Below, piece by piece: positions 231-56,287 of a stretch of 64,000 nucleotides of DNA. How positions within the stretch are numbered: position 1 is the stretch's first letter; each line of letters begins with the position of its first letter. The notes below the pieces were generated by a model. It made no database searches, had not been told where the DNA came from, and saw only the letters and a list, made by a program, of their open reading frames with translations. Made by a program: the position numbers and the translations under genes. The stretch comes from an uncultured Fibrobacterota bacterium (GTDB lineage Bacteria; Fibrobacterota; Chitinivibrionia; Chitinivibrionales; WJKA01): contig CAZPUS010000003.1 in NCBI GenBank assembly GCA_964589825.1, forward strand, positions 64,275-128,274. Reading direction: 5' to 3'.

Positions 231-390
231 TCTGAATTGTACGGTAGTATTAATAAACGCTGCGGTGTACCGTGCTGCGCTTGTATGTACAAAATGTATC
301 GCACAGCCTTGGTGGTTGTCTCATTGCTTCGGAGAATATACACACAGTACGGATGTCAGCAGAATACGCCGGCAAATTAATTCAGTTAGG
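231..390 (+). repeat. Imperfect-palindrome intergenic element (~160 nt, MITE-like), copy 1
   Basis: The termini tctgaattg... and ...aattcagttagg are inverted. Internal blocks aaacgctgcggtgtaccgtgctgc, tggttgtctcat and cagcagaatacgcc align in order with the copies at 9819, 36672, 41045 and 56130. The left half approximates the reverse complement of the right half. Confidence 0.75.
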
Positions 391-471
391 ATAGTAGCAA
401 AAAAACGTATAGTTTGTAAAAAATAGATAATCTCGTACCCCGGTGCAAAGACGGAATTTATTTTTCGCTTT

Positions 472-1680
472 ATGTCACCTGTTACCAAAATCAAAGGCGG
501 TGTCACCACCGCCCGGGGATTCCGTGCACACGGGATATACTGCGGCATTAAACAGCGGCATGAACCCGATGTCGGTATTCTGATAAGCGACACCACATGC
601 GACGCTGCAGGAGTATTTACGCGAAACGAGTTCGGAGCCGCCTGCGTGCAGCGAAACCGCTCCCTTCTTCCCGGCCGCGGAATACGTGCACTCATCTGCA
701 ACTCGGGCAATGCCAATGCGTGCACCGGTACGCAGGGTGAAGCTGACAACCGGGAACTGGCCGAGTCGCTCGCAAAACATCTGAAATGTCGCAGCGACGA
801 GGTGTGTACCGCGTCCACCGGAGTAATCGGCCGTCCGCTTGCGGTAAGCCTTATCACGCGCGCTTTCGGGGAACTCGTTGAAAAAAGTAAAACCCGGCAG
901 GACGACTCGTTCTGTAAAGCGATTCTTACCACCGATACTACTACCAAGACACACGCAGTCACCGTCACCACCTCCCGCGGAAGCTATACCGTCGGAGGAT
1001 GCGCCAAAGGCTCGGGGATGATACATCCGGACATGGCGACCATGCTCGGCTTTATCACTACCGATGCCGGCATAGATCACACAAAACTCTCATCTGCACT
1101 GAAAAAAGCAGTCGATACAACGTTCAACACCATCACCGTGGACGGTGACACCTCCACCAACGATATGGTCCTTGCATTCGCCAACGGTAAAGCGGACATC
1201 ACGATTTCCACCAGATCGGATCTGGCTGTATTCGAACGCGCTCTTTTTACCGTATGTGACGCACTTGCCCGACAGATCGTAGCCGACGGGGAGGGAGCGA
1301 CCAAATTTCTCGAAATTCAGGTATGTGGCGCGGCTTCACAAAAACAGGCGCAACACGCGGCACGTACCGTTGCCTCGTCCACGCTTCTCAAATGTGCGGT
1401 TTACGGCAATGATCCCAACTGGGGACGTATCCTCTCCGCACTGGGAACCGCCGATGTACGTATCAACCATCGGACGCTGCGTATATGTATCTGCGACACA
1501 TGCGTATTCGAACACATGCAGCCGTGCGATTACGAAGAGGATCGGCTTCAGCAGCGCATGGCCGACAGCGCACACATAACGGTTTCGATCGCTCTGGGTG
1601 CGGGATCGGCGAAGGGCAGCGCCCTCACCTGCGACCTCTCACACGAATACGTGACCATCAATGCGGAGTATCATACCTAA
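472..1680 (+). CDS. argJ: Bifunctional glutamate N-acetyltransferase / amino-acid acetyltransferase (ornithine acetyltransferase)
   Basis: 402 aa. ArgJ signature, including the autoproteolytic site HPDMATMLGFITTDA and the C-terminal YVTINAEYHT. Confidence 0.92.
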   Translation: MSPVTKIKGGVTTARGFRAHGIYCGIKQRHEPDVGILISDTTCDAAGVFTRNEFGAACVQRNRSLLPGRGIRALICNSGNANACTGTQGEADNRELAESLAKHLKCRSDEVCTASTGVIGRPLAVSLITRAFGELVEKSKTRQDDSFCKAILTTDTTTKTHAVTVTTSRGSYTVGGCAKGSGMIHPDMATMLGFITTDAGIDHTKLSSALKKAVDTTFNTITVDGDTSTNDMVLAFANGKADITISTRSDLAVFERALFTVCDALARQIVADGEGATKFLEIQVCGAASQKQAQHAARTVASSTLLKCAVYGNDPNWGRILSALGTADVRINHRTLRICICDTCVFEHMQPCDYEEDRLQQRMADSAHITVSIALGAGSAKGSALTCDLSHEYVTINAEYHT

Positions 1681-1720
1681 CAAAATCGACACCCGTTCTG
1701 CCGGGCTGCGATGTGTACCA

Positions 1721-1758
1721 TAAAAAACACTCCGCTGCAGCGCGAAGCTGCAACGGAG
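1721..1758 (-). terminator. Rho-independent terminator downstream of the hsp20 cluster (minus strand)
   Basis: 12-bp stem ctccgctgcagc / gctgcaacggag (one mismatch) with loop gcgaa. An A-run at 1722-1727 on + gives a U-tract after the hairpin on the minus strand. Confidence 0.6.
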
Positions 1759-1801
1759 CGTATAGGGTAAAGAGGGTTTGGGGTCTTAATTACACAGTCG
1801 G

Positions 1802-2230
1802 TTACGCATTGATGGCGATTTTTTTGGGTTTTGCTTCCTCCCGTTTTGGAATATGAATCTTCAGTACCCCGTTATCGAGCGATGCATTGACCTTCTCTTT
1901 ATCGTATTCATCCGCAAGCTGAAATGAACGATAATAATCACCAACATTGAACTGGCGTACCGACGCTTCTTCTCTGGCTTCCTGGCTGCTCTTTCCGCTG
2001 ATCACCAGGGTATCGTTTTCGTTTACCTCGATACTTACGTCACCTTTTTTTACCCCCGGCATATCAGCGATAAGCAACAACTCGTCATCACTCGTATAGA
2101 TATCCACATCCGGAATATAGGCATTCTCTGTGTTTATCAGACTCTCGGCTCCCGAATGTTTCACTTCCCGTTTATCCTGCTTTTCGATATCTCTGGCCAT
2201 AATAACACCTCCTTTTTGTATTTCGCTCAT
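1802..2230 (-). CDS. Small heat-shock protein, Hsp20/alpha-crystallin family (paralogue 3 of 3)
   Basis: 142 aa. Alpha-crystallin domain motifs ADMPGVKKGDVSIEV and NGVLKIHIPKREE. Confidence 0.9.
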   Translation of the reverse strand: MSEIQKGGVIMARDIEKQDKREVKHSGAESLINTENAYIPDVDIYTSDDELLLIADMPGVKKGDVSIEVNENDTLVISGKSSQEAREEASVRQFNVGDYYRSFQLADEYDKEKVNASLDNGVLKIHIPKREEAKPKKIAINA

Positions 2231-2237
2231 CTATTCT

Positions 2238-2654
2238 TTATTCGACATCAACCTTTATCTGTTTGGGTTTGGCTTCCTCCGCTTTGGGCAGCGTGACGAT
2301 CAGCACACCGTTGCTGAATGATGCCTTTAGCGCATCCTGATTGACCCGATACGGAATCCGAAAACTCTTTTCGAAATCCCCTTCCGGTCTCTCTTCACGA
2401 ACCGCAGTATATTTGCTGCGATCCACGGCGCTTTTCCTCGTTCCCGAAAGGGTCAGCACCCCGTCACTGAAGGTAATATCAACCGCATCTTTCTCAACAC
2501 CCGGAAGTTCGGCATGCACCACAACATCGTCTTCTTCATCGTAGATGTTTACCAGTGGAAATGCGCGCCGTCCTCCTCCATACGTGGAAAAAAGTCTGTC
2601 GAGATCCTGCTGCATACGCTCCAGTCTCGCGAACGGATCCTGATACCATAACAT
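2238..2654 (-). CDS. Small heat-shock protein, Hsp20/alpha-crystallin family (paralogue 2 of 3)
   Basis: 138 aa. Motifs AELPGVEKDAVDITF and NGVLIVTLPKAEE. The gap to the next hsp20 is 7 nt. Confidence 0.9.
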   Translation of the reverse strand: MLWYQDPFARLERMQQDLDRLFSTYGGGRRAFPLVNIYDEEDDVVVHAELPGVEKDAVDITFSDGVLTLSGTRKSAVDRSKYTAVREERPEGDFEKSFRIPYRVNQDALKASFSNGVLIVTLPKAEEAKPKQIKVDVE

Positions 2655-2684
2655 AATTACCTCCTTTTTTAATGTACTTTTTTG

Positions 2685-3182
2685 TTATTCAACAGCTACA
2701 TCTATTTTTTTCTGTTTTTTCTCTTCTTCTGTTTTGGGCAGTGTTACAGAAAGTACGCCGTTTCTGTAATGTGCTTTCGCAGCATCCCATTTGACGTTTT
2801 CACCCACCGGGATGGTTCTGCAAAAACTGCCGTAACGACACTCTCGTCTGCGCCATCCTTTTTTCTCCTCTTTCTGTTCGTCGCGTTTTTCACCGCGTAT
2901 GGTCAGAAAGCCGTTCTGATACGTGATATCCAGATCGTCTTTTTTCAGCCCCGGTATTTCGGAACGAACATATACATTTTTCTTGTCTTCATTCACATCG
3001 ACCGTAGGCTGCAGCATTACCTCTTCTTCATCTCCCCACGGCTCACTCAATGCGGTAAACGGATTCTCGAAAAAACGATCGAACCACTCATCCGCACCAC
3101 GACGCTGCACTCCCCGTTCTCCTTTTTTCCATGGTATTATACCTCGCATACTTACCTCCTGGTTAAGGTTTATAAGGTTCAT
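2685..3182 (-). CDS. Small heat-shock protein, Hsp20/alpha-crystallin family (paralogue 1 of 3)
   Basis: 165 aa. Motifs SEIPGLKKDDLDITY and NGVLSVTLPKTEE. Confidence 0.9.
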   Translation of the reverse strand: MNLINLNQEVSMRGIIPWKKGERGVQRRGADEWFDRFFENPFTALSEPWGDEEEVMLQPTVDVNEDKKNVYVRSEIPGLKKDDLDITYQNGFLTIRGEKRDEQKEEKKGWRRRECRYGSFCRTIPVGENVKWDAAKAHYRNGVLSVTLPKTEEEKKQKKIDVAVE

Positions 3183-3369
3183 CTTTTTCTCATTTATTTC
3201 ACCTGTTATTTATGCAAGTTATGTGCCAATCGCTTATACCCGGACGAAAAAAGCGTCCCCTCTACCCCCTCCGCATTATATCTCTTTACACAGCCTGAAG
3301 TTATACACTCCCGAGCACACGCCGCACGAGGACATCGCCTATCCGGTTTCACATCAAGGAATTACGGTT

Positions 3370-3428
3370 GTTTCAACATGAAACATGCATTCGCATAATT
3401 GAACATGTTTTTTTCATTATTGAAAAAA
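3370..3428. promoter_or_regulatory. Cluster of TGAAA/TTTCA-type inverted repeats upstream of the hsp20 operon (possible operator)
   Basis: GTTTCAacaTGAAAC (3370-3384), the palindrome AACATGTT (3402-3409) and TTTTTTCAttatTGAAAAAA (3409-3428). They lie between the kinase stop (3567) and the hsp20 start (3182). Confidence 0.3.
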
Positions 3429-3566
3429 CAGTGCATCACAATACCCGCCAATGAAACTTTTTACCATTCGTGGTACACCATTGCTCCCATGACTGCCGCC
3501 GTGTATTAATATACCCTTACCCCTCTGGATACCCCCTGTCGTGAGTCGAATACCGCCACACCATCT

Positions 3567-6449: not shown

Positions 6450-6470
6450 ATGGTGCTCGATATGCGATGA

Positions 6471-9545: not shown

Positions 9546-9818
9546 AGGGGGGCTCCTTTAAAGCGTAGTAAGACAAATTATTATTTCTCCACACAGCGGA
9601 ATGCATAATCGGCTCCAACACCCGCCAGCGGGGCAGGATACTACCTTATTATAGCGCCCTTGCAGTGAATTGTCAATTTTTTTTCTCTTTACACGCTGAT
9701 GTGATTGAACCGAAATGCGCCAACGCGGCCATTTCATGATATTTTATCCACCTATACAATGACACCTTACTTCCGGGCGCTCATGAAAGATATAATCGGG
9801 CTATACCGTTACTCAATG

Positions 9819-9953
9819 CCCGAACCACACGTGTATTGCATAACGCTGCATTACACCGTGCGGCTGTTGGTACTGTATGTTTTTTTGCTGACCTTAGCCC
9901 GAAGCACTACTTCCGTAACGCAGGCACGTGCCACGAGAACCATGGTGTTTTCG
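9819..9953 (+). repeat. Imperfect-palindrome intergenic element, shorter copy (central deletion)
   Basis: The left arm gtgtattgcataacgctgcattacaccgtgcggctg aligns closely with the 231 copy (gtagtattaataaacgctgcggtgtaccgtgctgcg). The right arm is weaker. It lies in the 667-nt cheX/lepA divergent spacer. Confidence 0.5.
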
Positions 9954-10212
9954 CAGCCAGAACAACCTATCCTGCAGGATATATCCACCATCTTGGCAAT
10001 TATATCGCAGGCTGAACCCGGCCCATCTGTATACAGGCATTTTTTATTTTATAACAGATTAGCTTGCAGACTTCGCTGTAAGAGCTCAGCGACAGCTGAA
10101 CTCCTGTCGACCGCATACCTCCGGTTATACGCAACGAAGATCTGAACACACGATAACCGGTTACCTGGCGCGTCGCGAGTAACCCATTGCAAAGAATCTG
10201 CGCGTTTCCATC

Positions 10213-18769: not shown

Positions 18770-20608
18770 TTAAAGAGACTGTTTACGGAGAAAACTTTCC
18801 CGATAAAAGAACAATTTGGGATCGGTAACCCTGTAGACATGCGGACCGAACCATACGTCACCCCCGGTTGGTGCCTGTTTGCCGTATCCGATATGCACAT
18901 GCGGACCCGTTGTCCTGCCGGTCATGCCAATTGTTCCGATCACTTGGTTTTTGGAAACCGAGTCACCGGTTGCGACATACCGTTCATCCATATGCGCAAA
19001 AAAGATAACCGTATTACCACTTACAACACCGACCGTTTTACCGGCAAGTGAATTATATTTCAGATACACCTTACCGGCAACGGGGGTACGTATCTGCGCC
19101 CCCAGATCTGCCGCCACATCGATTCCATAGTGAGGTGTCCCACCACCGGTGCCGCGTTCGCACCAGTCACCGGTAATGTACGAGAACGAATCTGTCACTA
19201 TGGAACAGAAAAATTCATACGCAGGAGACAGTGACTTATAATTGTTATTATCGATAGTTTGCGGTGGGTAAAAGGCCAGTTTGGCCCCCTGCGGAATAAA
19301 CTCGCTTGTTGCTCTGGGCCCGTCGTGCGTATTATTGTATATGTCAAGGGTCTGACGAATATATTCGTTCAATTGCGCATCTCCTGGGACTATCGCACTA
19401 TGTCTGCATATTGCATATTTGGCAAGACGGAATATCGATTCATCTTTTCCGAAGCGATGGTAGAATACGCGCTGCTTTTCCTTCTTTGACAATTGTACCG
19501 GAGCAAGTGGCTCTGGTGCAGAACGATTTGAAATTGGCGGGTTCCATAAAAGCCCCACGAATAAAACGAGCACCGCCGCTATTTTGTACCATACCCTCGG
19601 AATTGAGGCTCTCTTGGCCGATCCGTTTCCATACGCAAGGTTGTGCGAATAATTGTTAAGGGTATACTGTACCATTGTACAAAGTGAATCGAATGCTTTG
19701 GAGGCTTTAGAGTATTTCTTATACTCGAAAATACTCATGCCCTGGTCCTGCGCATCCCGGATAACCGATGTTTCCGGTATTTCTACATCGAATACGATTG
19801 ACTGGGGTAACATGGCAGAACCACGTCCGTTCTGAATCACGACGGTTTCACACAATTTCTGCAGGAACAATCTGTTTTCGTTTATTGTCCGTGTTTTCCC
19901 CTGTGACCGGGATCCTTTTCTTCCGTATACTTCGTTTTTAATAATCCGTATATGTACCTGTCTGTCCTGCTGGGCAAGCTTTTTCACATTAAGCAGATAA
20001 TCCTTGAAACTCCTTGTCGAAAGCGCACTCAGCGTTACCGGAATAAGGTTAAGGTCGCTTTCGCGATAAAGGCGCTTCGTAACGGTATTCCATATTGATG
20101 GAGTATCTATGAGTATGTATTTATAGTACTGGCGCAACAGAGAAAGATTAAAAAGGAAGTTCTGAATCTGGTAGGGACCCGGCGCACTGTGAAGCGCATA
20201 ATTTGCGGGTATTATATCGAATCCCGGAGAAATCGGAACTACCACTTCGGTAATATCGCCCTTGCCGAAGACCCAGGGAAACAGCGCGGATGCCCCTTTT
20301 TCCGTAACGTTCCGTACAGTCTCCAGCCCCGTATGCGCCCCCGTGTGTATACCCCATGGCGCAAAACGTTTTTTGAATAGATTCCAGGTTGTAGATGCAT
20401 ATTCATTAGGGTCCTTCCCGTACGCGTATGTCGCACTGCCCTGCGCATCCATATCTATGATGACGCATCGTCCCCGTTTTGACAAATGATATGCAAGGTT
20501 TGTCGCAATTGTGGACTTGCCTACTCCACCCTTGATATTTGCGACATTAATAATCCCGCCGGAATCGGCATCTTTAAACAGCACACCTTTATCTTTCGTA
20601 TTTGTCAT
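18770..20608 (-). CDS. Fusion protein: ParA/MinD-type ATPase, transmembrane segment, M23 (LytM) metallopeptidase
   Basis: 612 aa. Deviant Walker A NIKGGVGKSTIA, then IIDMDAQGSAT and ILIDTPS. TM segment VWYKIAAVLVLFVGLLW. C-terminal M23 motifs PHYGIDVAA (HxxxD) and TGPHVHIGY (HxH). Confidence 0.85.
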   Translation of the reverse strand: MTNTKDKGVLFKDADSGGIINVANIKGGVGKSTIATNLAYHLSKRGRCVIIDMDAQGSATYAYGKDPNEYASTTWNLFKKRFAPWGIHTGAHTGLETVRNVTEKGASALFPWVFGKGDITEVVVPISPGFDIIPANYALHSAPGPYQIQNFLFNLSLLRQYYKYILIDTPSIWNTVTKRLYRESDLNLIPVTLSALSTRSFKDYLLNVKKLAQQDRQVHIRIIKNEVYGRKGSRSQGKTRTINENRLFLQKLCETVVIQNGRGSAMLPQSIVFDVEIPETSVIRDAQDQGMSIFEYKKYSKASKAFDSLCTMVQYTLNNYSHNLAYGNGSAKRASIPRVWYKIAAVLVLFVGLLWNPPISNRSAPEPLAPVQLSKKEKQRVFYHRFGKDESIFRLAKYAICRHSAIVPGDAQLNEYIRQTLDIYNNTHDGPRATSEFIPQGAKLAFYPPQTIDNNNYKSLSPAYEFFCSIVTDSFSYITGDWCERGTGGGTPHYGIDVAADLGAQIRTPVAGKVYLKYNSLAGKTVGVVSGNTVIFFAHMDERYVATGDSVSKNQVIGTIGMTGRTTGPHVHIGYGKQAPTGGDVWFGPHVYRVTDPKLFFYRESFLRKQSL

Positions 20609-20642: not shown

Positions 20643-20821
20643 CCTTAACTAATTGTACAGTATTGTGTTGACACTGTCAAGTAAATCTAACGACATTGTT
20701 GTTAGGTTGCAGAAAATCGTGCTCGGCATATATCAAAAATCGGAAATTGGGCCCGTATCAGGTTGTTATCGTATGCAGAAACTGCAGTAGTGAGAAGCTT
20801 TTTCTGATTATGCTACCCCGG
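20643..20821 (+). repeat. Imperfect-palindrome intergenic element, divergent copy with an insertion
   Basis: ccttaactaattg..., gaaaatcgtgctcgg, caggttgttatcgtatgc and agaagctttttctgatt correspond in order to the conserved blocks of the 41045 copy. The termini are poorly paired. Confidence 0.4.
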
Positions 20822-31734: not shown

Positions 31735-31762
31735 TTATCGGCCTGGTATATCGGCGACTTTA
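31735..31762 (-). promoter_or_regulatory. Sigma-28 (FliA)-type promoter for the flagellin gene
   Basis: The minus strand reads TAAAGTCGCCGATATACCAGGCCGATAA, i.e. TAAA-N16-GCCGATAA against the consensus TAAA-N15-GCCGATAA. It lies ~180 nt upstream of the ATG. Confidence 0.6.
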
Positions 31763-31763
31763 A

Positions 31764-31815
31764 CCTGAACTGAGCAATTGTGTTGATGCAAGATCACGAT
31801 ACAGTAAATTCCCTG
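31764..31815 (+). repeat. Imperfect-palindrome element, left-arm fragment only
   Basis: cctgaactgagcaattgtgttgatgcaag...cagtaaattccct matches the left terminus and first blocks of the 56130 copy (ccctaactgagcaactgctttgatgaaag...cagtgcatccct). The right arm is absent, and the cysC terminator follows. Confidence 0.35.
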
Positions 31816-36563: not shown

Positions 36564-36671
36564 TACTTCCCTTTTTCAGTTTTTTTTCATTTTCCAAAGG
36601 TGAACAATACCATCGGGACTTGCTGCATCCACTCTCCTATGTCGCATATGCACAGAAAATATACTATTCTC

Positions 36672-36832
36672 TCCTGAACTAAACGATCACTTTGATGAAC
36701 GCCGAAGCAAGCCGTGCTTTTTCGAGTTCCTGATCATGATTAATCGACCTCACATATTGGCATATCATTTCCGGGAATACAAACGCAGTAATAATGGCAG
36801 CGCATTTCGCGAATACGTCATTCAGTACAGGA
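36672..36832 (+). repeat. Imperfect-palindrome intergenic element (161 nt) flanked by a 5-bp direct repeat TTCTC
   Basis: Termini tcctgaact... and ...cagtacagga. Blocks ctttgatgaacgcc, gccgtgc and gcagcgcatttcgcgaat. TTCTC at 36667-36671 and at 36833-36837 abuts both ends. Confidence 0.75.
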
Positions 36833-37069
36833 TTCTCCGTATGCGCAAAAAAATCTTATTTTTATACGTGTCAATGTCCTATTTGCTTTGCTCCATCTTT
36901 ATTCAGTGACACAACGTATTTTTTGACATTCAGCAGTTAAACTGCAAACAGTGCCTGATGCTGTTTCCCCTGACCGGATGGACATGTTGTCAACCCTCTG
37001 CTGCGAGAGAGCAGCAATTGCATACCCCGTCACCCGCTTTTTACATCGAATCGCCACACAAGCACACCC

Positions 37070-38866
37070 ATGAAAGTAATAATCGCACAACATGCAGGGT
37101 TTTGTATGGGGGTAAAGCGTGCAGTCGATCTTGCGATCGATGAATCACGCAAAGCCCGGCGTCCCATCTATACGCTCGGGCCGCTCATCCACAATATACA
37201 GACGCTGGAGCTTTTAACATCAAAAGGTGTATATGATATAAAAGATTGTGATCCTCCGCCTGAACACGCACACATCCTCGTACGCGCACATGGCGTCACC
37301 CCGGAAACGGAAGAGAATTATCGGGAACAGGGCTATACACTTATCGACGGGACATGCCCGAAAGTCAAGACCGTTCACAGGGTGATCGAAAAATACCGGG
37401 AAAAAGGGTATTATATTGTCATTATCGGAGATCGCGGACACGCCGAAGTTGAAGGGCTTCTCGGTTATGCCGGAGGAGAAGGCACGGTTATTTCTCAAGA
37501 AAGCGATATCGAATCGTTACCCGAAAAAGATAAAATATGCGTTGTTTCCCAAACTACCTTCAACAGCTCGGAATTCGATTCGTTAACCGATACACTGCGG
37601 CAACGTCTTCCTGCGGCCGAATTTGTAATAAAAAAAACAATATGTGCCGCTACCAATAAACGACAGGCGGAAATCCGGAACCTCGCCACGCAGGTGGATG
37701 CGCTCGTGGTAGTGGGTGGAAAACACAGTGCGAACACGACGCGTCTGGCCCATATCGGCTGCAAAGCCGGACTGCCGACACAGCACGTAGAGACAGAAAA
37801 AGAACTCGATACAGAAGCCCTCTCTCGCTATTCCACGGTAGGCGTCACGGCCGGTGCCTCGACCCCAAACTGGATGATAAAGCGTGTCGCCGCCACGATC
37901 GGTGCACTCGATACACAATCGCGAAACTACATAAACCGCTTCACACTAAAAGCACTCCATCTGCTTGGCTACTGTAATATATTTATGGCCTTTAGTGCGG
38001 TATGCGCTTCGTTTTTTTCCTGTGTGGTCCAGGACATATTCTTTTTCCAACCCCGCATACTACTAAGTACCGCGGCCATATTCCTCTACTTCTTCTCAAT
38101 GCATTTGTGGAACAGTGTAGCCAATAGTGAAATCACTCAGCATCTTGGTGTCGCGAGATATACTTTTTACAGCAGACATAAACGGCTGCTTCTTTCTTGT
38201 GCAGGCCTAGGTATGGGTCTTTTGCTCCTTCTGAGCAGCATACCGAATCGCGCGGTGTTTTTTCTCATGCTTTTTTCGACAGTAATCGGACTCGCCTATC
38301 ACCTCCCCGTGGTCCCGGCCTTTTTGCGACGAATCATTCCCTATCGCAGCATCAAAGATGTACCTACATCAAAGGATCTTTTTGTGGCACTGGCCTGGGG
38401 TGCAATCATTACATTTATTTTCCAGGCCGGTGCAGATTTTTTCTTCCGTTTCGATATTTACGCAGCATCCGTATTTTTGATCCTGTTTTTCTATTCATAC
38501 ATCCGTTCTTTGCTTATGGACCTGCGGGATATAGAAGGAGACCGGATTATGGGACGTGAAACACTCATTACCCTTATAGGAGAAAAAAGGGCGCTCAGCG
38601 TCATCTATGTAATGCTGTTTTTCATAATTCTCGTATGCTGTCTCCCCGGTCTTTTTTCACTCTTGCACCACGGCAACCTTCGTTCGACCGACTACATATT
38701 GCTTCTGCAACTGCCGGGAGTCGCCTTCATAAAATTGATTATCGATCGAAAGGCCTATCGAACCATCGATGATCCTTCGATATTCAATTTGCTATGCAAT
38801 GCTCAGTTTTTTATTGTCGGTATACTTGCTCTTACAGGGTACATGGTACTACAAAGTATAGCCTGA
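37070..38866 (+). CDS. ispH: Fusion: 4-hydroxy-3-methylbut-2-enyl diphosphate reductase (IspH) + C-terminal 9-TM UbiA-like prenyltransferase domain
   Basis: 598 aa. Residues 1-~285 are IspH (GFCMGVKRA, DGTCPKV, ICAATNKRQ, GGKHSANT). The remainder has ~9 TM helices with a UbiA-type second Asp-rich motif LMDLRDIEGDRIMGRETL. The first NDxxDxxxD motif is not recognisable (WNSVANSEITQH). Confidence 0.85.
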   Translation: MKVIIAQHAGFCMGVKRAVDLAIDESRKARRPIYTLGPLIHNIQTLELLTSKGVYDIKDCDPPPEHAHILVRAHGVTPETEENYREQGYTLIDGTCPKVKTVHRVIEKYREKGYYIVIIGDRGHAEVEGLLGYAGGEGTVISQESDIESLPEKDKICVVSQTTFNSSEFDSLTDTLRQRLPAAEFVIKKTICAATNKRQAEIRNLATQVDALVVVGGKHSANTTRLAHIGCKAGLPTQHVETEKELDTEALSRYSTVGVTAGASTPNWMIKRVAATIGALDTQSRNYINRFTLKALHLLGYCNIFMAFSAVCASFFSCVVQDIFFFQPRILLSTAAIFLYFFSMHLWNSVANSEITQHLGVARYTFYSRHKRLLLSCAGLGMGLLLLLSSIPNRAVFFLMLFSTVIGLAYHLPVVPAFLRRIIPYRSIKDVPTSKDLFVALAWGAIITFIFQAGADFFFRFDIYAASVFLILFFYSYIRSLLMDLRDIEGDRIMGRETLITLIGEKRALSVIYVMLFFIILVCCLPGLFSLLHHGNLRSTDYILLLQLPGVAFIKLIIDRKAYRTIDDPSIFNLLCNAQFFIVGILALTGYMVLQSIA

Positions 38867-39003
38867 TTGACGTATGTTGCGAATATGCAACTCATCATGT
38901 CGCTTTTTGGAAAAACTCTGCCAGAACAGTATATTTTTTCATGATGACATACCGGGCCAAAGTGCGGCCTAAACTGAACGAGCGCCTGGATGTAAACCGG
39001 TGT

Positions 39004-39789
39004 TTACAGCACCACACTCACCACAATAAAGTTTGAGACCAGAATAAGAACCGAAGCCCCGACAACCGCACGGTTGGTCGCTTTTCCCACGCCCGTGGCG
39101 CCACCGGTGGTAATATAGCCGAAATAACATCCGGTAAGAGTAATAATCCCGCCGAATACAAACGCCTTAATCATACACACAATTACATCGTTGATACTGA
39201 ACAGCATCTTTATGCCGTTGTAAAAAGTCGCGTTGCTCACCCCGAGTCCCACATTCGCGATAAGTTGTGATGTTACGATCGCGAGAAACGATGAGTAAAT
39301 AACCAGTACCGGCATCATGATAAATCCGGCAAGTACCCGGGGGGCGAGAAGGTAGAGAAACGGATCCAGATACAGTACCTCCATGGCATCTATCTGATCG
39401 GTTACCCGCATCGATCCAAGCTCGGAGGCGAGCATGGCGCTTACACGACCGGTGATTACCAGACCGGTAAGCACGGGTCCCAGATCGACGAGTATCGCCT
39501 TGCCTACAGCTGCGCCGAGATAGGTGTAGGGTATGATAAAGGAAAAAAAGTACTGCGCCTGCCAGACGGTAATAATGCCGATAAAGACCGAAATGAGGGA
39601 TATAAGCGGCAGGGATCGTACACCGATACGCATGGATTGTTCAAAAAGCAGATAGTACCTCGTTCCATACGAAGGAAGTACTCGCATTACACGAAGGAAG
39701 AAAAGCATGAGACTTCCCACACGTTCCACCGCCTCCCGTATTGTTCGCCCCGTGGATTCCGCGGTCTCATCGATCAGGCGTGCAATCAT
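39004..39789 (-). CDS. mlaE: MlaE-family ABC transporter permease
   Basis: 261 aa. YLGAAVGKAILVDLGPVLTGLVITGRVSAMLASELGSMRVTDQIDAMEV is the MlaE/Ttg2B signature. Confidence 0.88.
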   Translation of the reverse strand: MIARLIDETAESTGRTIREAVERVGSLMLFFLRVMRVLPSYGTRYYLLFEQSMRIGVRSLPLISLISVFIGIITVWQAQYFFSFIIPYTYLGAAVGKAILVDLGPVLTGLVITGRVSAMLASELGSMRVTDQIDAMEVLYLDPFLYLLAPRVLAGFIMMPVLVIYSSFLAIVTSQLIANVGLGVSNATFYNGIKMLFSINDVIVCMIKAFVFGGIITLTGCYFGYITTGGATGVGKATNRAVVGASVLILVSNFIVVSVVL

Positions 39790-41003
39790 TATGTATCGCT
39801 CTCTTCTTCCATACAGGCCTCACGTTTCTCTTCAATAAACTGCAAAATAGTAAAAAACACCAGCCGATACGGAAACTTCCATACCATTACCAGTACGGGT
39901 CGGGTCATTTGAAACAACGATGTAGACAGACTCATGGATGCAGATATCGATATATCCGTTGTTTCGAAATCGGGGATATATTCGATATTGAATCTCCGCA
40001 GGTGATACATCCCGCAGGCATGTTGTAAAGCCCCCATTGCCCCTGCCATCATTCCGGTGGTGTCCGGCCCCCCGCACCGACCACACACCCGCAGATAAAA
40101 ATGACCGAATCCTAAAATACCTATCCCCGAGGCCACCGATGCAATGATCCACCTAAGAAGCTGCGCTCTCGTATCCGGCTGCTGCGCAATAGCCAACAGA
40201 TACTCCCCTGCCGAGCTGTGACGCACTATATACCAGCGTCCGCATTTACTCTTCTTTTTATTGTTACCTTCCCTTTCTTTGTCGTGTAAATGCTCCTGGT
40301 CGGTTTCAACTCCGTGTGCGGCCTCCTCCTGCTGTTGTGCGGTTTCCGCAGAGCCTTCTACGTCATCCGCATCTTTGGAGCCCGAATCCTCCAATGCCGA
40401 CGCATGCTCATGTGGCGGCCGATCAATTCGTTCATCTTCGTTGCTCCCGGAATTGAGAAGGGAATCGTCGCTTTGCTCCCTATCCGGTCCCTGCGGCGGT
40501 CGATGAGCAGAAACTTCATCCTGATTCCTCTCTTCCGGCTCTTCTGCCATATGAGAGGCTTCTTCGCGACCAACGACGCTACCCCTGTTCTCATCCCTGT
40601 TTGTTTTTTCTCCTTCTCCATTGCGCTGCGCTGAAAAATGGGTCGGTATCTTTTGTTCTGTATGCGGGGGCTGCTCTGCGTGGCTTTCGACGTTATGCAT
40701 TGACGGCGAATCCATATGAGCTTCGGTTGTTCTCCGCTCTTGCTTATTTCCCTCTCCATCATCTTCAGCTGTACGGGGGATTGTAAACCGTGACAGAATG
40801 ACGAAACGAAAACCATCACCGCCGGGTGCATATGACCATGACAAGACGACCGGGTGTATCCAGAAACCCTGCAGCGTGTTCCACCGTCCATGCGAATATT
40901 CGACGCATGCCTTAAACGGAGAAAAATAAAGAAGCAGCAGGAACCCGCACACAAGCATTGCCACCACCCCGATAATAAATAGTATCCACATGATAAATGA
41001 CAT
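39789..41003 (-). CDS. Hypothetical membrane protein with a long acidic disordered linker
   Basis: 404 aa. N-terminal TM (WILFIIGVVAMLVCGFLLLLYF), a ~180-aa E/D/Q-rich low-complexity region and a C-terminal globular part (GGPDTTGMMAGAMGAL). Overlaps the mlaE start by 1 nt. Confidence 0.55.
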   Translation of the reverse strand: MSFIMWILFIIGVVAMLVCGFLLLLYFSPFKACVEYSHGRWNTLQGFWIHPVVLSWSYAPGGDGFRFVILSRFTIPRTAEDDGEGNKQERRTTEAHMDSPSMHNVESHAEQPPHTEQKIPTHFSAQRNGEGEKTNRDENRGSVVGREEASHMAEEPEERNQDEVSAHRPPQGPDREQSDDSLLNSGSNEDERIDRPPHEHASALEDSGSKDADDVEGSAETAQQQEEAAHGVETDQEHLHDKEREGNNKKKSKCGRWYIVRHSSAGEYLLAIAQQPDTRAQLLRWIIASVASGIGILGFGHFYLRVCGRCGGPDTTGMMAGAMGALQHACGMYHLRRFNIEYIPDFETTDISISASMSLSTSLFQMTRPVLVMVWKFPYRLVFFTILQFIEEKREACMEEESDT

Positions 41004-41044
41004 GCTACTGACTCCGTTTGGGCAAACGCAGGAAACTCTTTTTA

Positions 41045-41205
41045 CCTAAATTGAACGGTTGTTTTGATGAATGCTGGGGTGAACCGTGCTGCTATCGTGT
41101 TCTCGCACATTATGGAGCACCCTTTTTGGTTGTCTCATGATTTGCGAGAGTACTAGAGTAGCGCGGATTGCAGCAGCTTTCGCGAACAAAACCGCTCAAT
41201 TCAGG
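41045..41205 (+). repeat. Imperfect-palindrome intergenic element (161 nt) flanked by a 5-bp direct repeat TTTTA
   Basis: Termini cctaaattgaacgg... and ...ccgctcaattcagg. The left half matches the reverse complement of the right half across ~75 nt. TTTTA at 41040-41044 and at 41206-41210. Confidence 0.8.
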
Positions 41206-41256
41206 TTTTATTTGAACCTGAATTATTCAATCAGGTAAACGGGCGTTATGATACCG

Positions 41257-42108
41257 CTATCCGGCCGGTAAAGACGCCCGGCTGTCGGCACCCATAATCT
41301 TCCCGTCTTCAGTGATCACCTCATCCATCGTGATATCGGTATAAGGGTCACGGGGCAGCGGTGACCGGGAAATCTGACACCCGAAGGCAACCCCCAGCAG
41401 TGGTATTCTTCCCTTGAGCTCCTCCAGAAAACTGTCATAATAATGTTTGCCCCGTCCAAGACGTCCTCCTTGTGCGTCAAACGCAACACCCGGACACAGC
41501 ACCAGGTCAAGATCGCTCTTGAGAAAATTGCCTTGTAAATGATCGAGCGGCTCCTGTATACCATACGTACATGTATGACAGTCACAGGTGATATCCGCGA
41601 CCTCCGCTATAACCAGCTCACAGCGATCTTCTTTACAGCACGGCAAAATTGTTCGCTTCCCGTCTGCCTTCATCTGTACGATCAACGCAGCGAGATCCAC
41701 CTCGTCCGCAAGCGCCATATAGACCATTATTGCCCGCGCATCACGGTAAAATGAGGTGTGCGCCACATGCCGACATATGGATGCCGACTTTGCCTGACGC
41801 TGGTCGTGAGACAATTCGGCGCGACGTCTGGAATAATACGCCCTCGATGTTTTTTTGCGTGCGGCCAGATCGTTATGGCTGGTGTCACGGACAACGTCAC
41901 GGGTGCTTTCTTTTACGCTGTGTATCGATTCATTTACCGGTTCAGTGATGTTCGACAGCTCCTCCCGCATCTGATCGCTGTAATACCGCGCTTTGGCGAA
42001 AAGCCTTCCGGCGGTTCGGATAAAGCGAGGCAGTTCTTTTGAACCGAAAAACAGAAGAAGAAGAATAAAAACAACGAGAAGTTCCGGAAAACCTACGCCG
42101 GTAATCAT
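41257..42108 (-). CDS. Fusion: TatA/TatB-family N-terminal module + 5-formyltetrahydrofolate cyclo-ligase
   Basis: 283 aa. The N-terminus MITGVGFPELLVVFILLLLFFGSKELPRFIRTAGRLFAKAR is a TatB-like TM plus amphipathic helix. The C-terminal ~190 aa is 5-FCL (VYMALADEVDL, GVAFDAQGGRLGRGKHYYDSFL). There is no internal Met before the 5-FCL part. 4-nt overlap with tatC. Confidence 0.8.
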   Translation of the reverse strand: MITGVGFPELLVVFILLLLFFGSKELPRFIRTAGRLFAKARYYSDQMREELSNITEPVNESIHSVKESTRDVVRDTSHNDLAARKKTSRAYYSRRRAELSHDQRQAKSASICRHVAHTSFYRDARAIMVYMALADEVDLAALIVQMKADGKRTILPCCKEDRCELVIAEVADITCDCHTCTYGIQEPLDHLQGNFLKSDLDLVLCPGVAFDAQGGRLGRGKHYYDSFLEELKGRIPLLGVAFGCQISRSPLPRDPYTDITMDEVITEDGKIMGADSRASLPAG

Positions 42109-43127: not shown

Positions 43128-43412
43128 AATCCCTCCTTATTATTCAAGCGACTGTCATTATAAAAGATGCCATGCAGTAGCGTCGTATCACGACAACGTG
43201 AATCACCACAGACACATCCCTCTTATTTTGCAGTATGAAATATACATCACTGCGTAGAACCCGGTAAAATCAAATCCGCACGAAGTCGAGTGCACAACGT
43301 ATTTTTTTACATGCATACCGGTCTTCGTATGCCTGTTGCGTACCGTTTGACCGTATTCCTGTTGGATATCCAGACCGGCGGTCTTAACCACACCCTCTGC
43401 CTGTTACCATAA

Positions 43413-45320: not shown

Positions 45321-45322
45321 CA

Positions 45323-49828: not shown

Positions 49829-49911
49829 GCCGAAGTGGTGGAATTGGTAGACGCGGCGGACTCAAAATCCGCTGGATTTTTTCCGTGCCGGTTCGAGTCC
49901 GGCCTTCGGCA
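49829..49911 (+). tRNA. tRNA-Leu (anticodon CAA), long variable arm, no encoded CCA
   Basis: Cloverleaf by hand. Acceptor GCCGAAG/CTTCGGC, anticodon stem GCGGA/TCCGC with loop CTCAAAA, variable arm tggattttttccgt, T arm GCCGG-TTCGAGT-CCGGC and discriminator A. Confidence 0.93.
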
Positions 49912-49912
49912 A

Positions 49913-49991: not shown

Positions 49992-50351
49992 GAGAGACTG
50001 CATTACCCGATCAGCCAATGCAGTGGCCTGCACGGAACGCTATTTGCTTGTACGCGGTACGATAGAATAGTAAATGGTTAAGCTTTTCCGTGTAATATGC
50101 CGATAATAACTAATGTGCCGTTTTTTCAGTATATATACCTGTACGCCGCAATAAACCTGCCTCTGCCGGGAATTCCGGTATGCATGGAGAGGGCATACAC
50201 AGGCGCGTTTTGTGATAAAACCGTTCCAATTCATTTAAAAGCGTATACGCATATATACTTCAACCGAGTTATTTATCAGCTACAAATCAACAAGTCACTG
50301 CAGACATCTTTTATACTGCATTTGTATTCAACAGGAAAGATACTCACGGCT

Positions 50352-50984: not shown

Positions 50985-51014
50985 CGAAGCGTGCGAGCGT
51001 AAGGTATTTTTCGC

Positions 51015-51950: not shown

Positions 51951-52801
51951 GTTATTTAACCTATTGGAATCTGAAAGAAAAGCCGTTTGAAGAAGTGTGC
52001 AACAGCCATTTCTTTTTTGAAAGTGATGATCACCGGGAAGCCTTCGATCGTATGCACTACGTAATAAACGACCGCAATATGAACATATGCCTGCTTACAG
52101 GGGAAATCGGATCCGGAAAAACGATCACAAAAAACATACTTCGCAGTACGCTTTCACCCCAGCATTTTCAGATCATTGATTTTGACAATTCCAATTTTTC
52201 CTTCGAGGACATTGTATACGATATTATCTCGCGATTCAGGTTCAGAGACCCTGCCATAGAAATGCAGCTTGACGAGAGCGTAAGTTCGCCCGGCCGGGGT
52301 GATAAGTATATGCTGATGAAATCATTTACCGCCAAGCTCGAAAAACTCGTGTATACCGAAAAACGGCACCTCGTACTTATATTCGATGAAGCACAGCAAA
52401 TGTCTGAAGAGGTGATTGAAGAGATAAAAAATTTGACCAATATTTCATCTGAAACACAAAACTACATCACCGTGTTTTTCATAGGACAACCGGAGCTTCG
52501 CACAAAGATATCACGGCTAAAGCAAGTGGACCAGCGCATTTTTCTGCGTTTTCACCTTAACAACCTCGGGTATGAAAACACCCGCAAATACATTCAGCAT
52601 CGGTTGCGGGTTGCAGGCTGCGAACACGAAGCGATATTCACCGCCGATGCTTTTTCGCACATCTTTCACAATACTGCCGGAGTGCCACGCGAAATTAACA
52701 GAGTATGCAAGCTTGCACTTACCTACGGGTATGCGCATGGGCTCTCTGAAATAACAAAAGAAGATATTCAGGTAGTAATTAACGATATCACCGCTACATA
52801 A
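51947..52801 (+). CDS. ExeA/GspA/MshM-like AAA ATPase (PEP-CTERM-locus ATPase type)
   Basis: 284 aa. GTG start overlaps the upstream stop (GTGA). Walker A GEIGSGKTIT, LIFDEAQ and FIGQPELR. Confidence 0.8.
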   Translation: MSYLTYWNLKEKPFEEVCNSHFFFESDDHREAFDRMHYVINDRNMNICLLTGEIGSGKTITKNILRSTLSPQHFQIIDFDNSNFSFEDIVYDIISRFRFRDPAIEMQLDESVSSPGRGDKYMLMKSFTAKLEKLVYTEKRHLVLIFDEAQQMSEEVIEEIKNLTNISSETQNYITVFFIGQPELRTKISRLKQVDQRIFLRFHLNNLGYENTRKYIQHRLRVAGCEHEAIFTADAFSHIFHNTAGVPREINRVCKLALTYGYAHGLSEITKEDIQVVINDITAT

Positions 52802-52807
52802 ATACGC

Positions 52808-55800
52808 ATGTCAGACAAAGAAAAAAAACCGTTCAGACTGGGAGACATCCTTTCAAGGCTTAAGAAAGACGGAAGCCTTGACGACGTATCGGAGGGGGCA
52901 ACGGATAACGATGAACACCGTGCCGAGACCGGCCATTCCGGCCTTTTTTCTTCACCCGGATCGATGTCCGCACTGCACAATTCACCAAAAGACGATTCTC
53001 TTCCTGCACAACCGGTATTCGGTACCCCCCGGGCACGAAATGAAGCGCAATCGGTTCCTCGACAGGAAAAAAACGAACCGCCTTCGAGCTTCGCTTCGTC
53101 AGATGACAATAATACCTCCGGAAATGAGAGAGCCTCTTCGGGTACGGTTCCCCCTTCTCCTCCTCCACCACCGGGCGGATCCGGATCGGACGGGGGCAAT
53201 TACTTCCAGGGCGGCGCATCATTTTCCGAAAACGATGATGAAGAAGAATTCGACATATACCGCTACCTGAGCGTCATTCTTCGCCGCAAGTGGCTCATTG
53301 CCGCCTGTGCGATCATCGCCGGGCTTTACAGCCTTTACAACTTCTCAACCGCAGAAAAGCACTATATTGCACGGGCGCGACTTCTTTTTACCCCCGGTTA
53401 CAGACAGCTTATCAATGACGATGCTATGATGTGGCAATTATGGGGCAGCAGAGAAATCCGTCTCAATACCCATCTGGAATTACTGAAAAGCAACAGACAG
53501 GTTCTCGAAAGTGTTTCGGATAAACTTGGCGAAAACGTCTCTCCCACAACCATAAAAGCGGGAATCACTGTCCATCGCGGCGGTGGCAAGGATGATGACA
53601 GCGAAAACAACATCATTGTTCTTACATTACAACACAACCATCCGGATACTGCGCAGCTGATACTCAATACACTGTGCAGAGAATACATGCGCTATATAAG
53701 CGAAGTGAATGCGCGCGATCTCACTTCCACAATTATTAAACTGCAAACCCAGATAAACAAGATAAAAAACGACCTCAGCGATAAAGAAAACAAGCTGCGG
53801 GCATTTAAGGAAAATAATGAACTGGTTGAGCTCAATAGTGCGACAAACACCATTATATCGAAACTCTCCAATATGGAATCGAATCTGCAAAACACGAGGA
53901 TCGATCTGAAATCGAATCGTGATAAGATTAAATCGGTAACGCAGGAAATGACACAAAACGACATGAAGGTAGTAGGAAATATAACATATGAAGATCCCTA
54001 CCGCAATCGTCTTTCCGAACTTGAATTCGATCTCAACAACCTGCTTACCGAATATAGTCCCGACCATTACAAGGTACGTATGGTCAAGGATAAAATCGAA
54101 AAAATGAAGGAGATCATTCGCTCCGATATCGAAACAAAGATCGCACGAAAAAAAACATATGTAAACAACCCTATTCAACAAACGCTTCGTCAGCAATACA
54201 TCGATCTCAATCTGGCGATTACGGCGCTGGAGTCCAAACGCAAGGCCCAGGAACAGATCGTCGAACAGCTGAATCGCAAGCTACAGTCTCTGCCTGCACT
54301 GCAGCAGGAATATGCGCGTCTTCAACGCAATACCAGCTCACTCGAAAAAACACTCCGCAAGCTTCAGGACAAATACGAAACCCTAAAGATCAAGCGGGAT
54401 TCGCAGGAATCCGATCTCAAGATTCTCGAGCTTGCAAAAGTGCCACAAACCGCATATTCCGACATGAGCGTGTCACGGATACCGCTCGGAATTATAATCG
54501 GACTGATTATCGGAATTGCACTCGCATTTGTGTGGGAATACCTCGATCAGACGATCAAGGATCCCCAGGAAGTAGAAAAGTCCACCGGGCTTCCTCTACT
54601 TGGGCTCATTCCCTATTATGAAAACGACGAATCACCGATACTTCATGGCGATCTCACAAAAGATAAGACAAAACTCGAACCCTACCGCGCGCTCAGAACC
54701 AGCCTTAAACACATTTTTTCCACACACCATATCCAGAGTCTCCTGGTCTGCAGTGCAGTAAAAGGCGAAGGGAAAACCACTATCGCGATTAATCTCGCGA
54801 TTTCGTTTGCCCTTGACGGCAGGAAGGTGATTATTGTAGACGGCGATCTGCGTCGTCCGAGTCTGCACGGTTTTTTTCATATTCCCTCTCCGTCAAAAGG
54901 TCTTACGCATTGCCTGCAGGGCAGCGCCACGATTCAGGACGTAATAACCCCTACCAACATACCCAATCTCTACTGCGTAACGGCCGGAGAACGGGTTGCC
55001 GACAGTGCCGAGTTACTCGGCTCCGCTCATCTTTCCACGTTGATATCGAGTCTTAAAGAGCATTCTCAGCTGGTGATTTTTGATTCTCCTGCGCTCGTCC
55101 CAATCAGCGATTCAATTACCATCGCCGCATCAATGGATGCGACTATTTATGTATTACGTGCGCTGTGGACCCCACGAAAAGCAACGCTGCAGTCCAGAAA
55201 TCAGCTTAGTCAGGTCGGAAGCAATATTATTGGAGCGGTGCTCAACGGACTCTCCCCTGCAAGCGGCTACTATCCGTACTACTACGGCTATTATCGCTAC
55301 TATTCTTACAAATACGCCTATGAAGAGGACGAACCCGCACCCCGTCATTCAATCCGCCGGTTCGGATTGGGCCTTGAAAAAAAAGCCAGAGAGGGACTCC
55401 ATATGCTCAAGCTTTCACTCCCCTCTTTTTTCAGCAGAATGGGAACTTTTTTTTCACACCTGGGTCGCAGCACATTATTCTGGATTCTGCTCGTGCTCTT
55501 TGTCGGCCTTGCCGTTGCCTCCGGCCTTATCTCCTCCAGACGTGCTCACAAGCAGAAAACCATCAAGGCGGCCGATATCTCCTACCGTGGTTCTGTCGCA
55601 CAATCGGCCGAATCCGTCTCTGGATCTTCCGCTCGGAGTAACACCCCTCATACACCAATAACAATTGAAAAAGAACAAACCTCATCCTACGGGGTCTCCT
55701 CCTCGGATATAGAGGCACTGCATCGGGCAGTCCAGCAAAGAGACAGTGCATTTTTTTCCGGGGATTTCTCGGAATACCGGCGTTATTACGACCGGGATGA

Positions 55801-56062
55801 ATTCTCTTTTCCGGGAGGAGGATACACCGAATGGCAGGCCAAAATGCGTCACTTTTTTAACAGCCGTCTCCCGGCCTATACAATACCGCAACCGGATTCA
55901 AACAGGATTTCACCCGCATCGTCACAGCGCTATATATCCAGAACCACTCTCGTAGTAACGGGTCCTGACAACGATACGACTCGTGCCGACTTCATCTCCC
56001 TGTGGCACACAACCCCCGCAGGATGGAAGATTATCAAGGAAAAACGCCGCTTTGATCGATAG
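52808..56062 (+). CDS. Wzc-like polysaccharide co-polymerase / BY-tyrosine kinase with an extra C-terminal TM + NTF2-like extension
   Basis: 1084 aa. Disordered N-terminus, Wzz domain, long coiled coil and a second TM. Kinase motifs are Walker A SAVKGEGKTT, A' VIIVDGDLRRP and B VIFDSPA. Tyr cluster GYYPYYYGYYRYYSYKYAY (nt 55264-55323), followed by ~260 further residues including a TM (LFWILLVLFVGLAVASGLI). Confidence 0.85.
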   Translation: MSDKEKKPFRLGDILSRLKKDGSLDDVSEGATDNDEHRAETGHSGLFSSPGSMSALHNSPKDDSLPAQPVFGTPRARNEAQSVPRQEKNEPPSSFASSDDNNTSGNERASSGTVPPSPPPPPGGSGSDGGNYFQGGASFSENDDEEEFDIYRYLSVILRRKWLIAACAIIAGLYSLYNFSTAEKHYIARARLLFTPGYRQLINDDAMMWQLWGSREIRLNTHLELLKSNRQVLESVSDKLGENVSPTTIKAGITVHRGGGKDDDSENNIIVLTLQHNHPDTAQLILNTLCREYMRYISEVNARDLTSTIIKLQTQINKIKNDLSDKENKLRAFKENNELVELNSATNTIISKLSNMESNLQNTRIDLKSNRDKIKSVTQEMTQNDMKVVGNITYEDPYRNRLSELEFDLNNLLTEYSPDHYKVRMVKDKIEKMKEIIRSDIETKIARKKTYVNNPIQQTLRQQYIDLNLAITALESKRKAQEQIVEQLNRKLQSLPALQQEYARLQRNTSSLEKTLRKLQDKYETLKIKRDSQESDLKILELAKVPQTAYSDMSVSRIPLGIIIGLIIGIALAFVWEYLDQTIKDPQEVEKSTGLPLLGLIPYYENDESPILHGDLTKDKTKLEPYRALRTSLKHIFSTHHIQSLLVCSAVKGEGKTTIAINLAISFALDGRKVIIVDGDLRRPSLHGFFHIPSPSKGLTHCLQGSATIQDVITPTNIPNLYCVTAGERVADSAELLGSAHLSTLISSLKEHSQLVIFDSPALVPISDSITIAASMDATIYVLRALWTPRKATLQSRNQLSQVGSNIIGAVLNGLSPASGYYPYYYGYYRYYSYKYAYEEDEPAPRHSIRRFGLGLEKKAREGLHMLKLSLPSFFSRMGTFFSHLGRSTLFWILLVLFVGLAVASGLISSRRAHKQKTIKAADISYRGSVAQSAESVSGSSARSNTPHTPITIEKEQTSSYGVSSSDIEALHRAVQQRDSAFFSGDFSEYRRYYDRDEFSFPGGGYTEWQAKMRHFFNSRLPAYTIPQPDSNRISPASSQRYISRTTLVVTGPDNDTTRADFISLWHTTPAGWKIIKEKRRFDR

Positions 56063-56129
56063 ATCCGATTCGTCATCCGTGCGTTTTTTCATGCGAAAAC
56101 GTGTTACAAATGATATATTTACAGTACAA

Positions 56130-56287
56130 CCCTAACTGAGCAACTGCTTTGATGAAAGCTGCCATGAACCGTGCTGTCAGTGCATCCCTAATGATGGATC
56201 ACGCGTGATGGTTGGCTCACCGTTTCGGGGGGCGCACCGTCAGTGTACATGACATAAAACTTTGCGTACAGAAGCGCTCAGTTGGGG
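56130..56287 (+). repeat. Imperfect-palindrome intergenic element (158 nt) inside the envelope locus
   Basis: Termini ccctaactgagc... and ...gctcagttgggg pair over 12 positions (one G-T). Blocks ctttgatgaaagctgcc, atgaaccgtgctgtcagtgc and tggttggctca. Left arm ctgtcagtgcatccc faces right-arm ggggggcgcaccgtcag. Confidence 0.8.

Follow-up and report, generated by a model that had tools for sequence, protein, structure and literature searches.

Intergenic DNA in a 64,000-nt stretch of contig CAZPUS010000003.1 from an uncultured Fibrobacterota bacterium (hereafter the window, meaning this whole stretch) holds several segments of about 160 nt that resemble one another and are bounded by inverted repeats, which raises the question of what kind of element they are. 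The original prediction for this DNA had proposed a non-autonomous transposon, a transcribed long-hairpin RNA or a protein-bound palindrome. Our analysis favours the first two of these in combination and disfavours the third. At about even confidence, the segments are copies of a non-autonomous hairpin repeat, similar to a MITE (a miniature transposable element with inverted repeats), which works as a single strand and occupies intergenic sites that bear no relation to one another, in two or more organisms. This combination is favoured because the copies have sharp ends, lie at non-syntenic sites in two organisms and are missing from the nearest relatives, and because covariation between their arms exceeds that of controls and the asymmetry between their strands is consistent.

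Family membership was assessed in a leave-one-out test, in which an nhmmer profile built from the remaining copies had to recover the omitted copy, and with two covariance models run with filters off, the first built from the four window copies and the second from seven copies. The five segments that had been put forward showed evident similarity when aligned. Four of them are full-length copies of 158–161 nt, all on the + strand, and constitute the largest direct-repeat family of the window; that these four are related was borne out, as each was recovered by the profile of the others with E values between 9e-10 and 1e-20. The copies are c231 (231–390; E = 7e-18; 144 and 128 bits with the covariance models), c36672 (36666–36837 including flanks, the element itself spanning 36672/36673–36831; E = 9e-10; 147 and 122 bits), c41045 (41040–41210 including flanks, element 41045–41205; E = 1e-20), which is the best-preserved copy, and c56130 (56130–56287; E = 6e-12), which represents a diverged subfamily with jointly changed arms. 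Pairwise identity among the full window copies is 54–64% and they therefore differ at 36–46% of positions; the copies do diverge as had been noted, but by more than the estimated third.

The termini of the element, CCTRAAYTGA...TCARTTYAGG, also given as (A)CCTRAAYTGARCG ends, were confirmed to be inverted repeats. They form a terminal helix of 11–12 pairs, of which 83% are paired over the seven copies introduced below, and the left terminus of c231 is without the outer CC. Alignment of the copies revealed an invariant core CCGT inside ACCGTGCTG, which is present on one arm only. Every window copy is intergenic, as had been claimed. c231 is separated by 22 nt from the start codon (ATG, position 208) of a gene on the − strand and has argJ 81 nt downstream; c36672, with its palindrome mostly decayed, is followed after 238 nt by an ispH fusion gene; c41045 is located between two − strand genes; and c56130 has a co-oriented gene 107 nt downstream. 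All-against-all blastn among the intergenic segments of the window, 7.3 kb in total, revealed no other shared family.

Copies outside the window were reached via a peptide profile of the left-arm + frame translations, which was searched against 1.84 billion proteins. The profile matched two spurious open reading frames (ORFs), P0126 and P0129, reading through related elements on two contigs of JGI metagenome 3300037796, and these contigs carry three further full copies, named L204, L205a and L205b. The L204 copy (9723–9882) scored 122.7 bits (E = 3e-31) with a model that had never been shown this sequence, and c41045 is nearer to it (79% identity) than to any copy of its own genome (54–64%). 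The other two are located on contig L205 on opposite strands, L205a at 1225–1384 (95.7 bits) and L205b at 656–823 (47.3 bits). Over the window and metagenome sets together, full copies measure 158–168 nt and pairwise identity ranges from 54 to 79%. The G+C content of the L204 and L205 contigs is 57%, versus 48% in the window, and they are therefore from another organism; their neighbouring genes (glmS, a GH43-like gene and a sulfatase gene) are unrelated to the window genes. The sequence similarity stops precisely at the hairpin ends.

The gene order lepA-lepB-trpB-trpA is conserved between the window (gap region 9546–10212) and the Chitinivibrionales-like relatives L206, L208 and L209. No copy of the element was present in the 72 kb (about 52 kb non-redundant) fetched from the nearest relatives sharing this order. 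A search with the pattern ATRAANGCTGNNNTGNACCGTGCTG gave no match in GTDB genomes and one match in JGI metagenomes, on L082; a looser pattern yielded only chance matches in viral contigs, and blastn of c41045 against plasmid records gave no match. The match on L082 (819–945 of contig Ga0209679_1093020, 2.1 kb) consists of 36 nt matching the conserved left core, within a roughly 120-nt hairpin (z −2.1); this is a possible distant and shorter relative of the family, on a contig without credible genes and with an ambiguous alignment.

Folding the consensus of the four window copies gave a single long hairpin (−66 kcal/mol, z −6.4), and RNAalifold predicted a single rod. c41045 forms a 63-pair hairpin with small internal loops only (RNA fold −75.2 kcal/mol, z −8.3), and the fold of c56130 is moderate (z −2.9 versus shuffles). 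One long hairpin per copy, as had been proposed, thus holds for c41045, c56130 and the consensus, but not for c231 (z −1.15), c36672 (z −0.28) or the segment at 9819 (z −1.1), the folds of which are no better than those of shuffled sequences. The statement that each copy stays self-complementary was overstated, since c41045 and c56130 are the only ones to surpass shuffled sequence. When neutral decay from the consensus was simulated and compared with the fold of each window copy, c231 was as expected (z 0), c36672 was worse than expected (z +1.7), and both c41045 (z −3.35) and c56130 (z −2.27, also given as −2.3) were better than expected. From this we conclude that some copies are relics, while others derive from lineages with jointly changed arms.

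Across the seven copies, a hairpin of about 50–60 pairs is kept, with 84% of the cells of the RNAalifold consensus being standard pairs. Cells changed on both sides numbered 21, compared to 12.4 ± 2.7 in shuffles (1 of 500 reaching 21), and the covariation score was 0.307 versus 0.235 in shuffles (0 of 500), these values applying to a structure drawn from the same alignment and to sequences that are related. Sliding the partner columns by 1–3 positions lowered pairing to 35–40%. The paired change in the terminal helix that had been pointed out by eye was found as C-G in c36672 and c56130, U-A in c41045 and U-G in c231.

Such paired changes above shuffle controls would also be expected if the family were a non-mobile structured RNA, either a cis-acting leader hairpin or a duplicated small RNA gene, that is selected for pairing. 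Conserved G.U pairs and a strand-specific fold point in the same direction, as do the folds of c41045 and c56130, which are better than neutral decay would leave them, and the gene context: in seven of eight copies, a co-oriented gene starts 16–336 nt downstream, c41045 being the exception, and both L205 copies face their own adjacent gene, with 16 nt (to the GH43-like gene) and 89 nt left before the respective start codon. Co-orientation is expected by chance in about 50% of cases, so that seven of eight is only suggestive. Against a structured RNA stand the absence of a promoter or terminator conserved with the unit, the similarity ending at the hairpin ends and the loss of the fold in two window copies. 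No match to an intrinsic terminator was obtained in a scan around c41045, and no consistent T run follows the other copies. Moreover, the downstream genes (argJ, lepA, ispH, a LytR-family gene and a GH43-like gene) are functionally unrelated, c41045, the best hairpin, lacks a co-oriented gene downstream, and truncated stubs and flanking direct repeats fit mobile DNA better. We therefore regard an immobile RNA family as unlikely.

Known RNA families do not account for the element either. Rfam 15 run over the window reached the gathering score only for a tRNA-Leu at 49829–49911, and for the loci with c231 and c41045 there was no Rfam match even at E ≤ 10. Together with the absence of the ERIC core (see below), this agrees with the original prediction that the family fits no described one. 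6S RNA, which has a large central bubble and is usually single-copy, was considered and rejected, there being no Rfam match at E ≤ 10, small internal loops only, and several copies. c41045 is located near a gene for 5-formyltetrahydrofolate cyclo-ligase, which was taken as a coincidence and not as evidence for 6S RNA.

The two strands of the element are not equivalent. The element's own strand, which homology defines as the one whose 5′ arm holds ACCGTGCTG, folds with the lower free energy in six of the seven copies. For c41045 the fold amounts to −75.2 kcal/mol on the + strand versus −57.7 kcal/mol on the − strand, a gain of 17.5 kcal/mol, and the gain is 26.4 kcal/mol for L204 and 21.2 kcal/mol for L205a. 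Over the seven copies, G.T oppositions outnumber A.C oppositions by 61 to 34, and several G.U pairs are retained in five to six of the seven. Between c41045 and L204, 11 single transitions in the stem swap a Watson-Crick pair for G.U or the reverse, by which pairing on this strand is retained, and only two are of the A.C type, by which pairing would be retained on the opposite strand. When only the four window copies were aligned arm to arm, the asymmetry was not significant (29 versus 24); it emerged clearly only once pairs were taken from the structure and the further copies were included. As the hairpin tolerates G.U (G.T) pairs, we conclude that the element works as a single strand.

This preference bears directly on the possibility that the element is a duplex palindrome bound by a protein, such as an operator, a nucleoid site or a cruciform. 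The invariant CCGT core within ACCGTGCTG on one arm would suit a binding site, and so would the location of many copies in divergent promoter gaps. However, an excess of G.T over A.C oppositions is unexpected for a duplex site, the two arms are merely 52–68% Watson-Crick complementary, and the neighbouring genes have no common pathway. A protein-bound palindrome is accordingly considered very improbable.

Besides the full-length copies, the window contains partial ones. A probable decayed copy on the + strand (9819–9976) retains the left arm only (about 9819–9870). The leave-one-out nhmmer profile matched it at model positions 2–53 with E = 0.057, and both the four-copy and the seven-copy covariance models missed it with filters off. 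Of the segment 9819–9953, listed in the prediction as a family copy, the left ~50 nt are thus recognisable, but the remainder is unmatched. It carries the core AACGCTGCATTACACCGTGC, the search pattern having been designed with this copy in view, and lies inside a 667-nt gap upstream of lepA, which measures 160–250 nt in the nearest relatives. A left-terminal stub of 31 nt (31762–31792, + strand) shares 81% identity with the left end of c56130 (blastn E = 0.002 in the intergenic set); the weak relative suggested at 31764–31815 is supported as this fragment but not over its longer extent. A possible left-terminal stub, CCTAAACTGAACG (38968–38980, + strand), is located in a convergent gap, agrees with the c41045 terminus in 12 of 13 bases and matches the degenerate terminus pattern exactly, with nhmmer E values of only 0.4–5. 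For the remaining suggested relatives at 20643, 45323, 18455, 8272 and 3294, nothing was detected by nhmmer --max, the covariance models with filters off, or intergenic blastn. Ten nt past c41045, a 21-nt mini-palindrome, ACCTGAATTATTCAATCAGGT (41216–41236, + strand), consists of the left and right termini only and may be a remnant of internal deletion or a second, collapsed insertion. A local inverted repeat was detected there (41198–41224).

Signs of mobility were noted, with limits. c41045 is flanked on both sides by TTTTA (41040–41044 and 41206–41210) and c36672 by a perfect direct repeat ATTCTC (36666–36671 and 36832–36837); the chance of at least two such cases among four copies is 8e-4. 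The flanks of L205b, TTTTA and TTTTT, match in four of five bases. The five bases before the left terminus are TTTTA or TTTAA (TTTWA) in 4 of 10 copies and stubs, namely at 41040–41044 and 31759–31763 of the window, at 9718–9722 of L204 and at 824–832 of L205, and this left flank could reflect a preferred target or a target sequence on one side. The left end is what remains in the relics at 9819, 31762 and perhaps 38968. The seven window copies and stubs lie without exception on the + strand (p about 0.02); the GC skew is negative throughout the window and mostly negative in L204 with the element set on the + strand. The single orientation regardless of gene context that had been described holds in the window, but fails on L205, where the two copies are oppositely oriented and 400 nt apart.

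Alternatively, the hairpin might be moved as single-stranded DNA by an HUH enzyme (Y1; RAYT or IS200/IS605) or, as with integron attC sites, by a tyrosine recombinase, which would tie orientation to replication direction. In favour of such a mover are the strand-specific fold that tolerates G.T pairs, the + strand location of all seven window copies and stubs in DNA of negative GC skew, with which the skew of L204 mostly agrees, and TTTWA as candidate one-sided target at c41045, L205b, L204 and the 31762 stub. The termini CCTAAC and GTTAGG of some copies resemble attC core sites, which counts on the same side. Compensatory hairpin changes, too, have been described for REPINs (PMC3116915). On the other hand, the L205 copies point in opposite directions within 400 nt, and no gene for a Y1 transposase, RAYT or integrase was found in the window. 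The structured strand is the C-rich strand and not the expected lagging-strand template. Perfect direct repeats are unexpected for HUH (IS200/IS605) transposition, and two copies have them. The copies are 4–27 kb apart among housekeeping genes on both strands, which speaks against a cassette array. Finally, the element has no short conserved REP unit and no conserved GTAG/CGTC tag of the sort described for REPs (PMC3733652). Movement as single-stranded DNA is therefore judged to be distinctly unlikely.

What remains as the favoured explanation is the non-autonomous, MITE-like repeat with a one-strand hairpin, mobile now or in the past. Its copies are shorter than about 400 bp, have no internal transposase or conserved ORF, possess terminal inverted repeats and are dispersed with sharp ends. 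As to movement, transcription and effect on neighbouring genes, we infer the following course. The element, without a transposase of its own, would depend for its movement on an enzyme that is encoded elsewhere and acts in trans, and would land mostly 16–340 nt upstream of a gene reading the same way. It would then be transcribed together with this gene as a long leader hairpin, which, by analogy with Correia and ERIC elements, would most simply be its role. Copies that no longer pair (c231, c36672, the 9819 copy and the terminal stubs) would be decaying relics.

Several observations weigh against this explanation. No flanking direct repeat was detected at c231, c56130, L204 or L205a; with direct repeats at only two, perhaps three, of seven copies, target-site duplication is not established. 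The uniform orientation in the window is not predicted for random insertion by a DDE transposase. Neither a partner transposase nor an insertion sequence with the same ends was found in the 64-kb window of this genome, and there is no transposase, integrase or Y1 enzyme among its approximately 50 ORFs. The family is of low copy number, and half of the full-length window copies (c231 and c36672) fold no better than shuffled sequence.

Coding potential was evaluated separately. In the left halves (positions 1–80) of the four window copies, variability shows a 3-nt period (0.58/0.26/0.37 by phase, p = 0.0004), and a column-shuffle BLOSUM test gave z 2.6–2.7 for one − strand frame. Both results would suit a small protein gene, or its remnant, within the repeat, as would an ATG at an equal place in three window copies and the ORFs placed by gene callers over two metagenome copies. 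However, no frame with a start codon is open in all copies; the mini-ORFs encode 12–29 residues and stop at differing places. The period was absent in the three independent metagenome copies (p 0.39–0.47), and chance may explain its presence in the window. Between c41045 and L204 the DNA is 79% identical but the peptide only ~55% (hand count), and the differences are not concentrated at third codon positions. The independent copies and this comparison largely refute a coding function, and a small protein gene is regarded as extremely improbable.

Comparison with known systems places the element as a new family of a familiar kind, represented by ERIC, Correia and REPIN, and not as a new kind of element. 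ERIC (also IRU, 127 bp) and YPAL (also RU-2, ~168 bp) are likewise miniature, imperfectly palindromic over their whole length, without internal transposase, intergenic, and diverged yet hairpin-forming, and they are often found within transcribed regions. Two papers describe ERIC/YPAL-type repeats as MITE-like small mobile sequences (PMC2759123; PMC3184786). The present family differs from them in its host phylum, its termini (A)CCTRAAYTGARCG and the mere handful of copies found here, and the ERIC2 core had no match in the window even when up to 3 mismatches were allowed.

Correia (NEMIS) elements of Neisseria are likewise ~100–160 bp in length, have long terminal inverted repeats and often lie near gene starts. 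They form a long hairpin when co-transcribed with neighbouring genes, and this hairpin RNA is a natural substrate of double-strand-specific RNases. Correia elements differ in their TA target duplication, their hundreds of copies and a characteristic terminus, whereas the present family has direct repeats of 5–6 bp, where these are present, and apparently few copies.

REPINs are also non-autonomous hairpin repeats with frequent compensatory changes, for which a single-stranded form is thought to be important (PMC3116915). Each comprises a pair of short, highly conserved REP units with a variable spacer between them, copies number in the tens to hundreds, and a RAYT gene accompanies them; in the present family, by contrast, conservation is spread along the arms, and no REP-like unit, GTAG/CGTC tag or RAYT was found in the window. 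Integron attC sites share with it the imperfect palindrome, the preservation of structure above sequence and the recognition of one strand. Partial RYYYAAC and GTTRRRY cores occur in some copies only. However, the window has no cassette array or integrase, 160 nt exceeds a typical attC, and the present folds do not show the R/L box layout, in which the central spacer is unpaired. ERIC, REPIN and attC, like 6S RNA, were thus rejected as identities, their defining features not being found in the window. A further reading, possible if rather doubtful, is that of an undescribed class of strand-specific long-hairpin nucleic acid in two uncultivated lineages, being either a leader RNA selected for pairing ahead of unrelated genes or an element copied as a single strand by an enzyme that has so far not been connected with such repeats, with an orientation tied to the chromosome strand in this genome.

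The host of the window copies is itself distant from sequenced organisms. The window encodes housekeeping functions (argJ, lepA, trpA/B, ispH, tatC) as well as a flagellin gene and polysaccharide export genes. The closest ArgJ (49% identity) and LepA (65–69%) belong to metagenome-assembled genomes of Fibrobacterota, Chitinivibrionales, Chitinispirillaceae. Every window protein looked up was the sole member of its 90% identity cluster, which implies that the lineage is very poorly sampled. A search of 5.8 billion proteins with a 404-residue protein (39789–41003) returned no homologue but itself; Pfam and NCBIfam domains were likewise absent from it.

Some further features of the window were recorded. 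A motif CACAACGTATTTTTT(G/T)ACAT(T/G)CA is located at 36909–36932, upstream of the ispH fusion gene, and at 43292–43315, upstream of a gene for a SpoU-type methyltransferase (89% over 28 nt), and may be a common promoter or operator. The fusion gene is unusual, with a 598-residue ORF (37070–38866) in which IspH (residues 1–285) is joined to a UbiA-type prenyltransferase-like C-terminal half. Next to tatC, a 283-residue ORF (41257–42108) combines a TatA/B-type N-terminus with 5-formyltetrahydrofolate cyclo-ligase, and in a 612-residue ORF (18770–20608) the N-terminus is that of a ParA/MinD-type ATPase and the C-terminus that of an M23 peptidase. Three tandem HSP20-family genes (1802–3182, − strand) lie downstream of argJ. 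Between 60000 and 64000, the AT skew rises to +0.29 over an 869-residue coiled-coil-like ORF (61338–63947), which contains internal repeats at 300-nt and 165-nt spacing.

In well-studied bacteria, miniature hairpin repeats influence how genes are expressed and genomes rearranged; from uncultivated phyla, hardly any are known. The family described here comes from a host lineage without a close sequenced relative. A second organism, whose base composition is very different, carries it too, and selection on the family for a one-strand hairpin is measurable. The family model R2 and a few seed sequences can be used to search complete genomes and metatranscriptomes of these lineages. If the element is transcribed and processed, it would represent leader-hairpin control that spreads by transposition; otherwise, it would still be of use for marking mobile DNA and telling strains apart.

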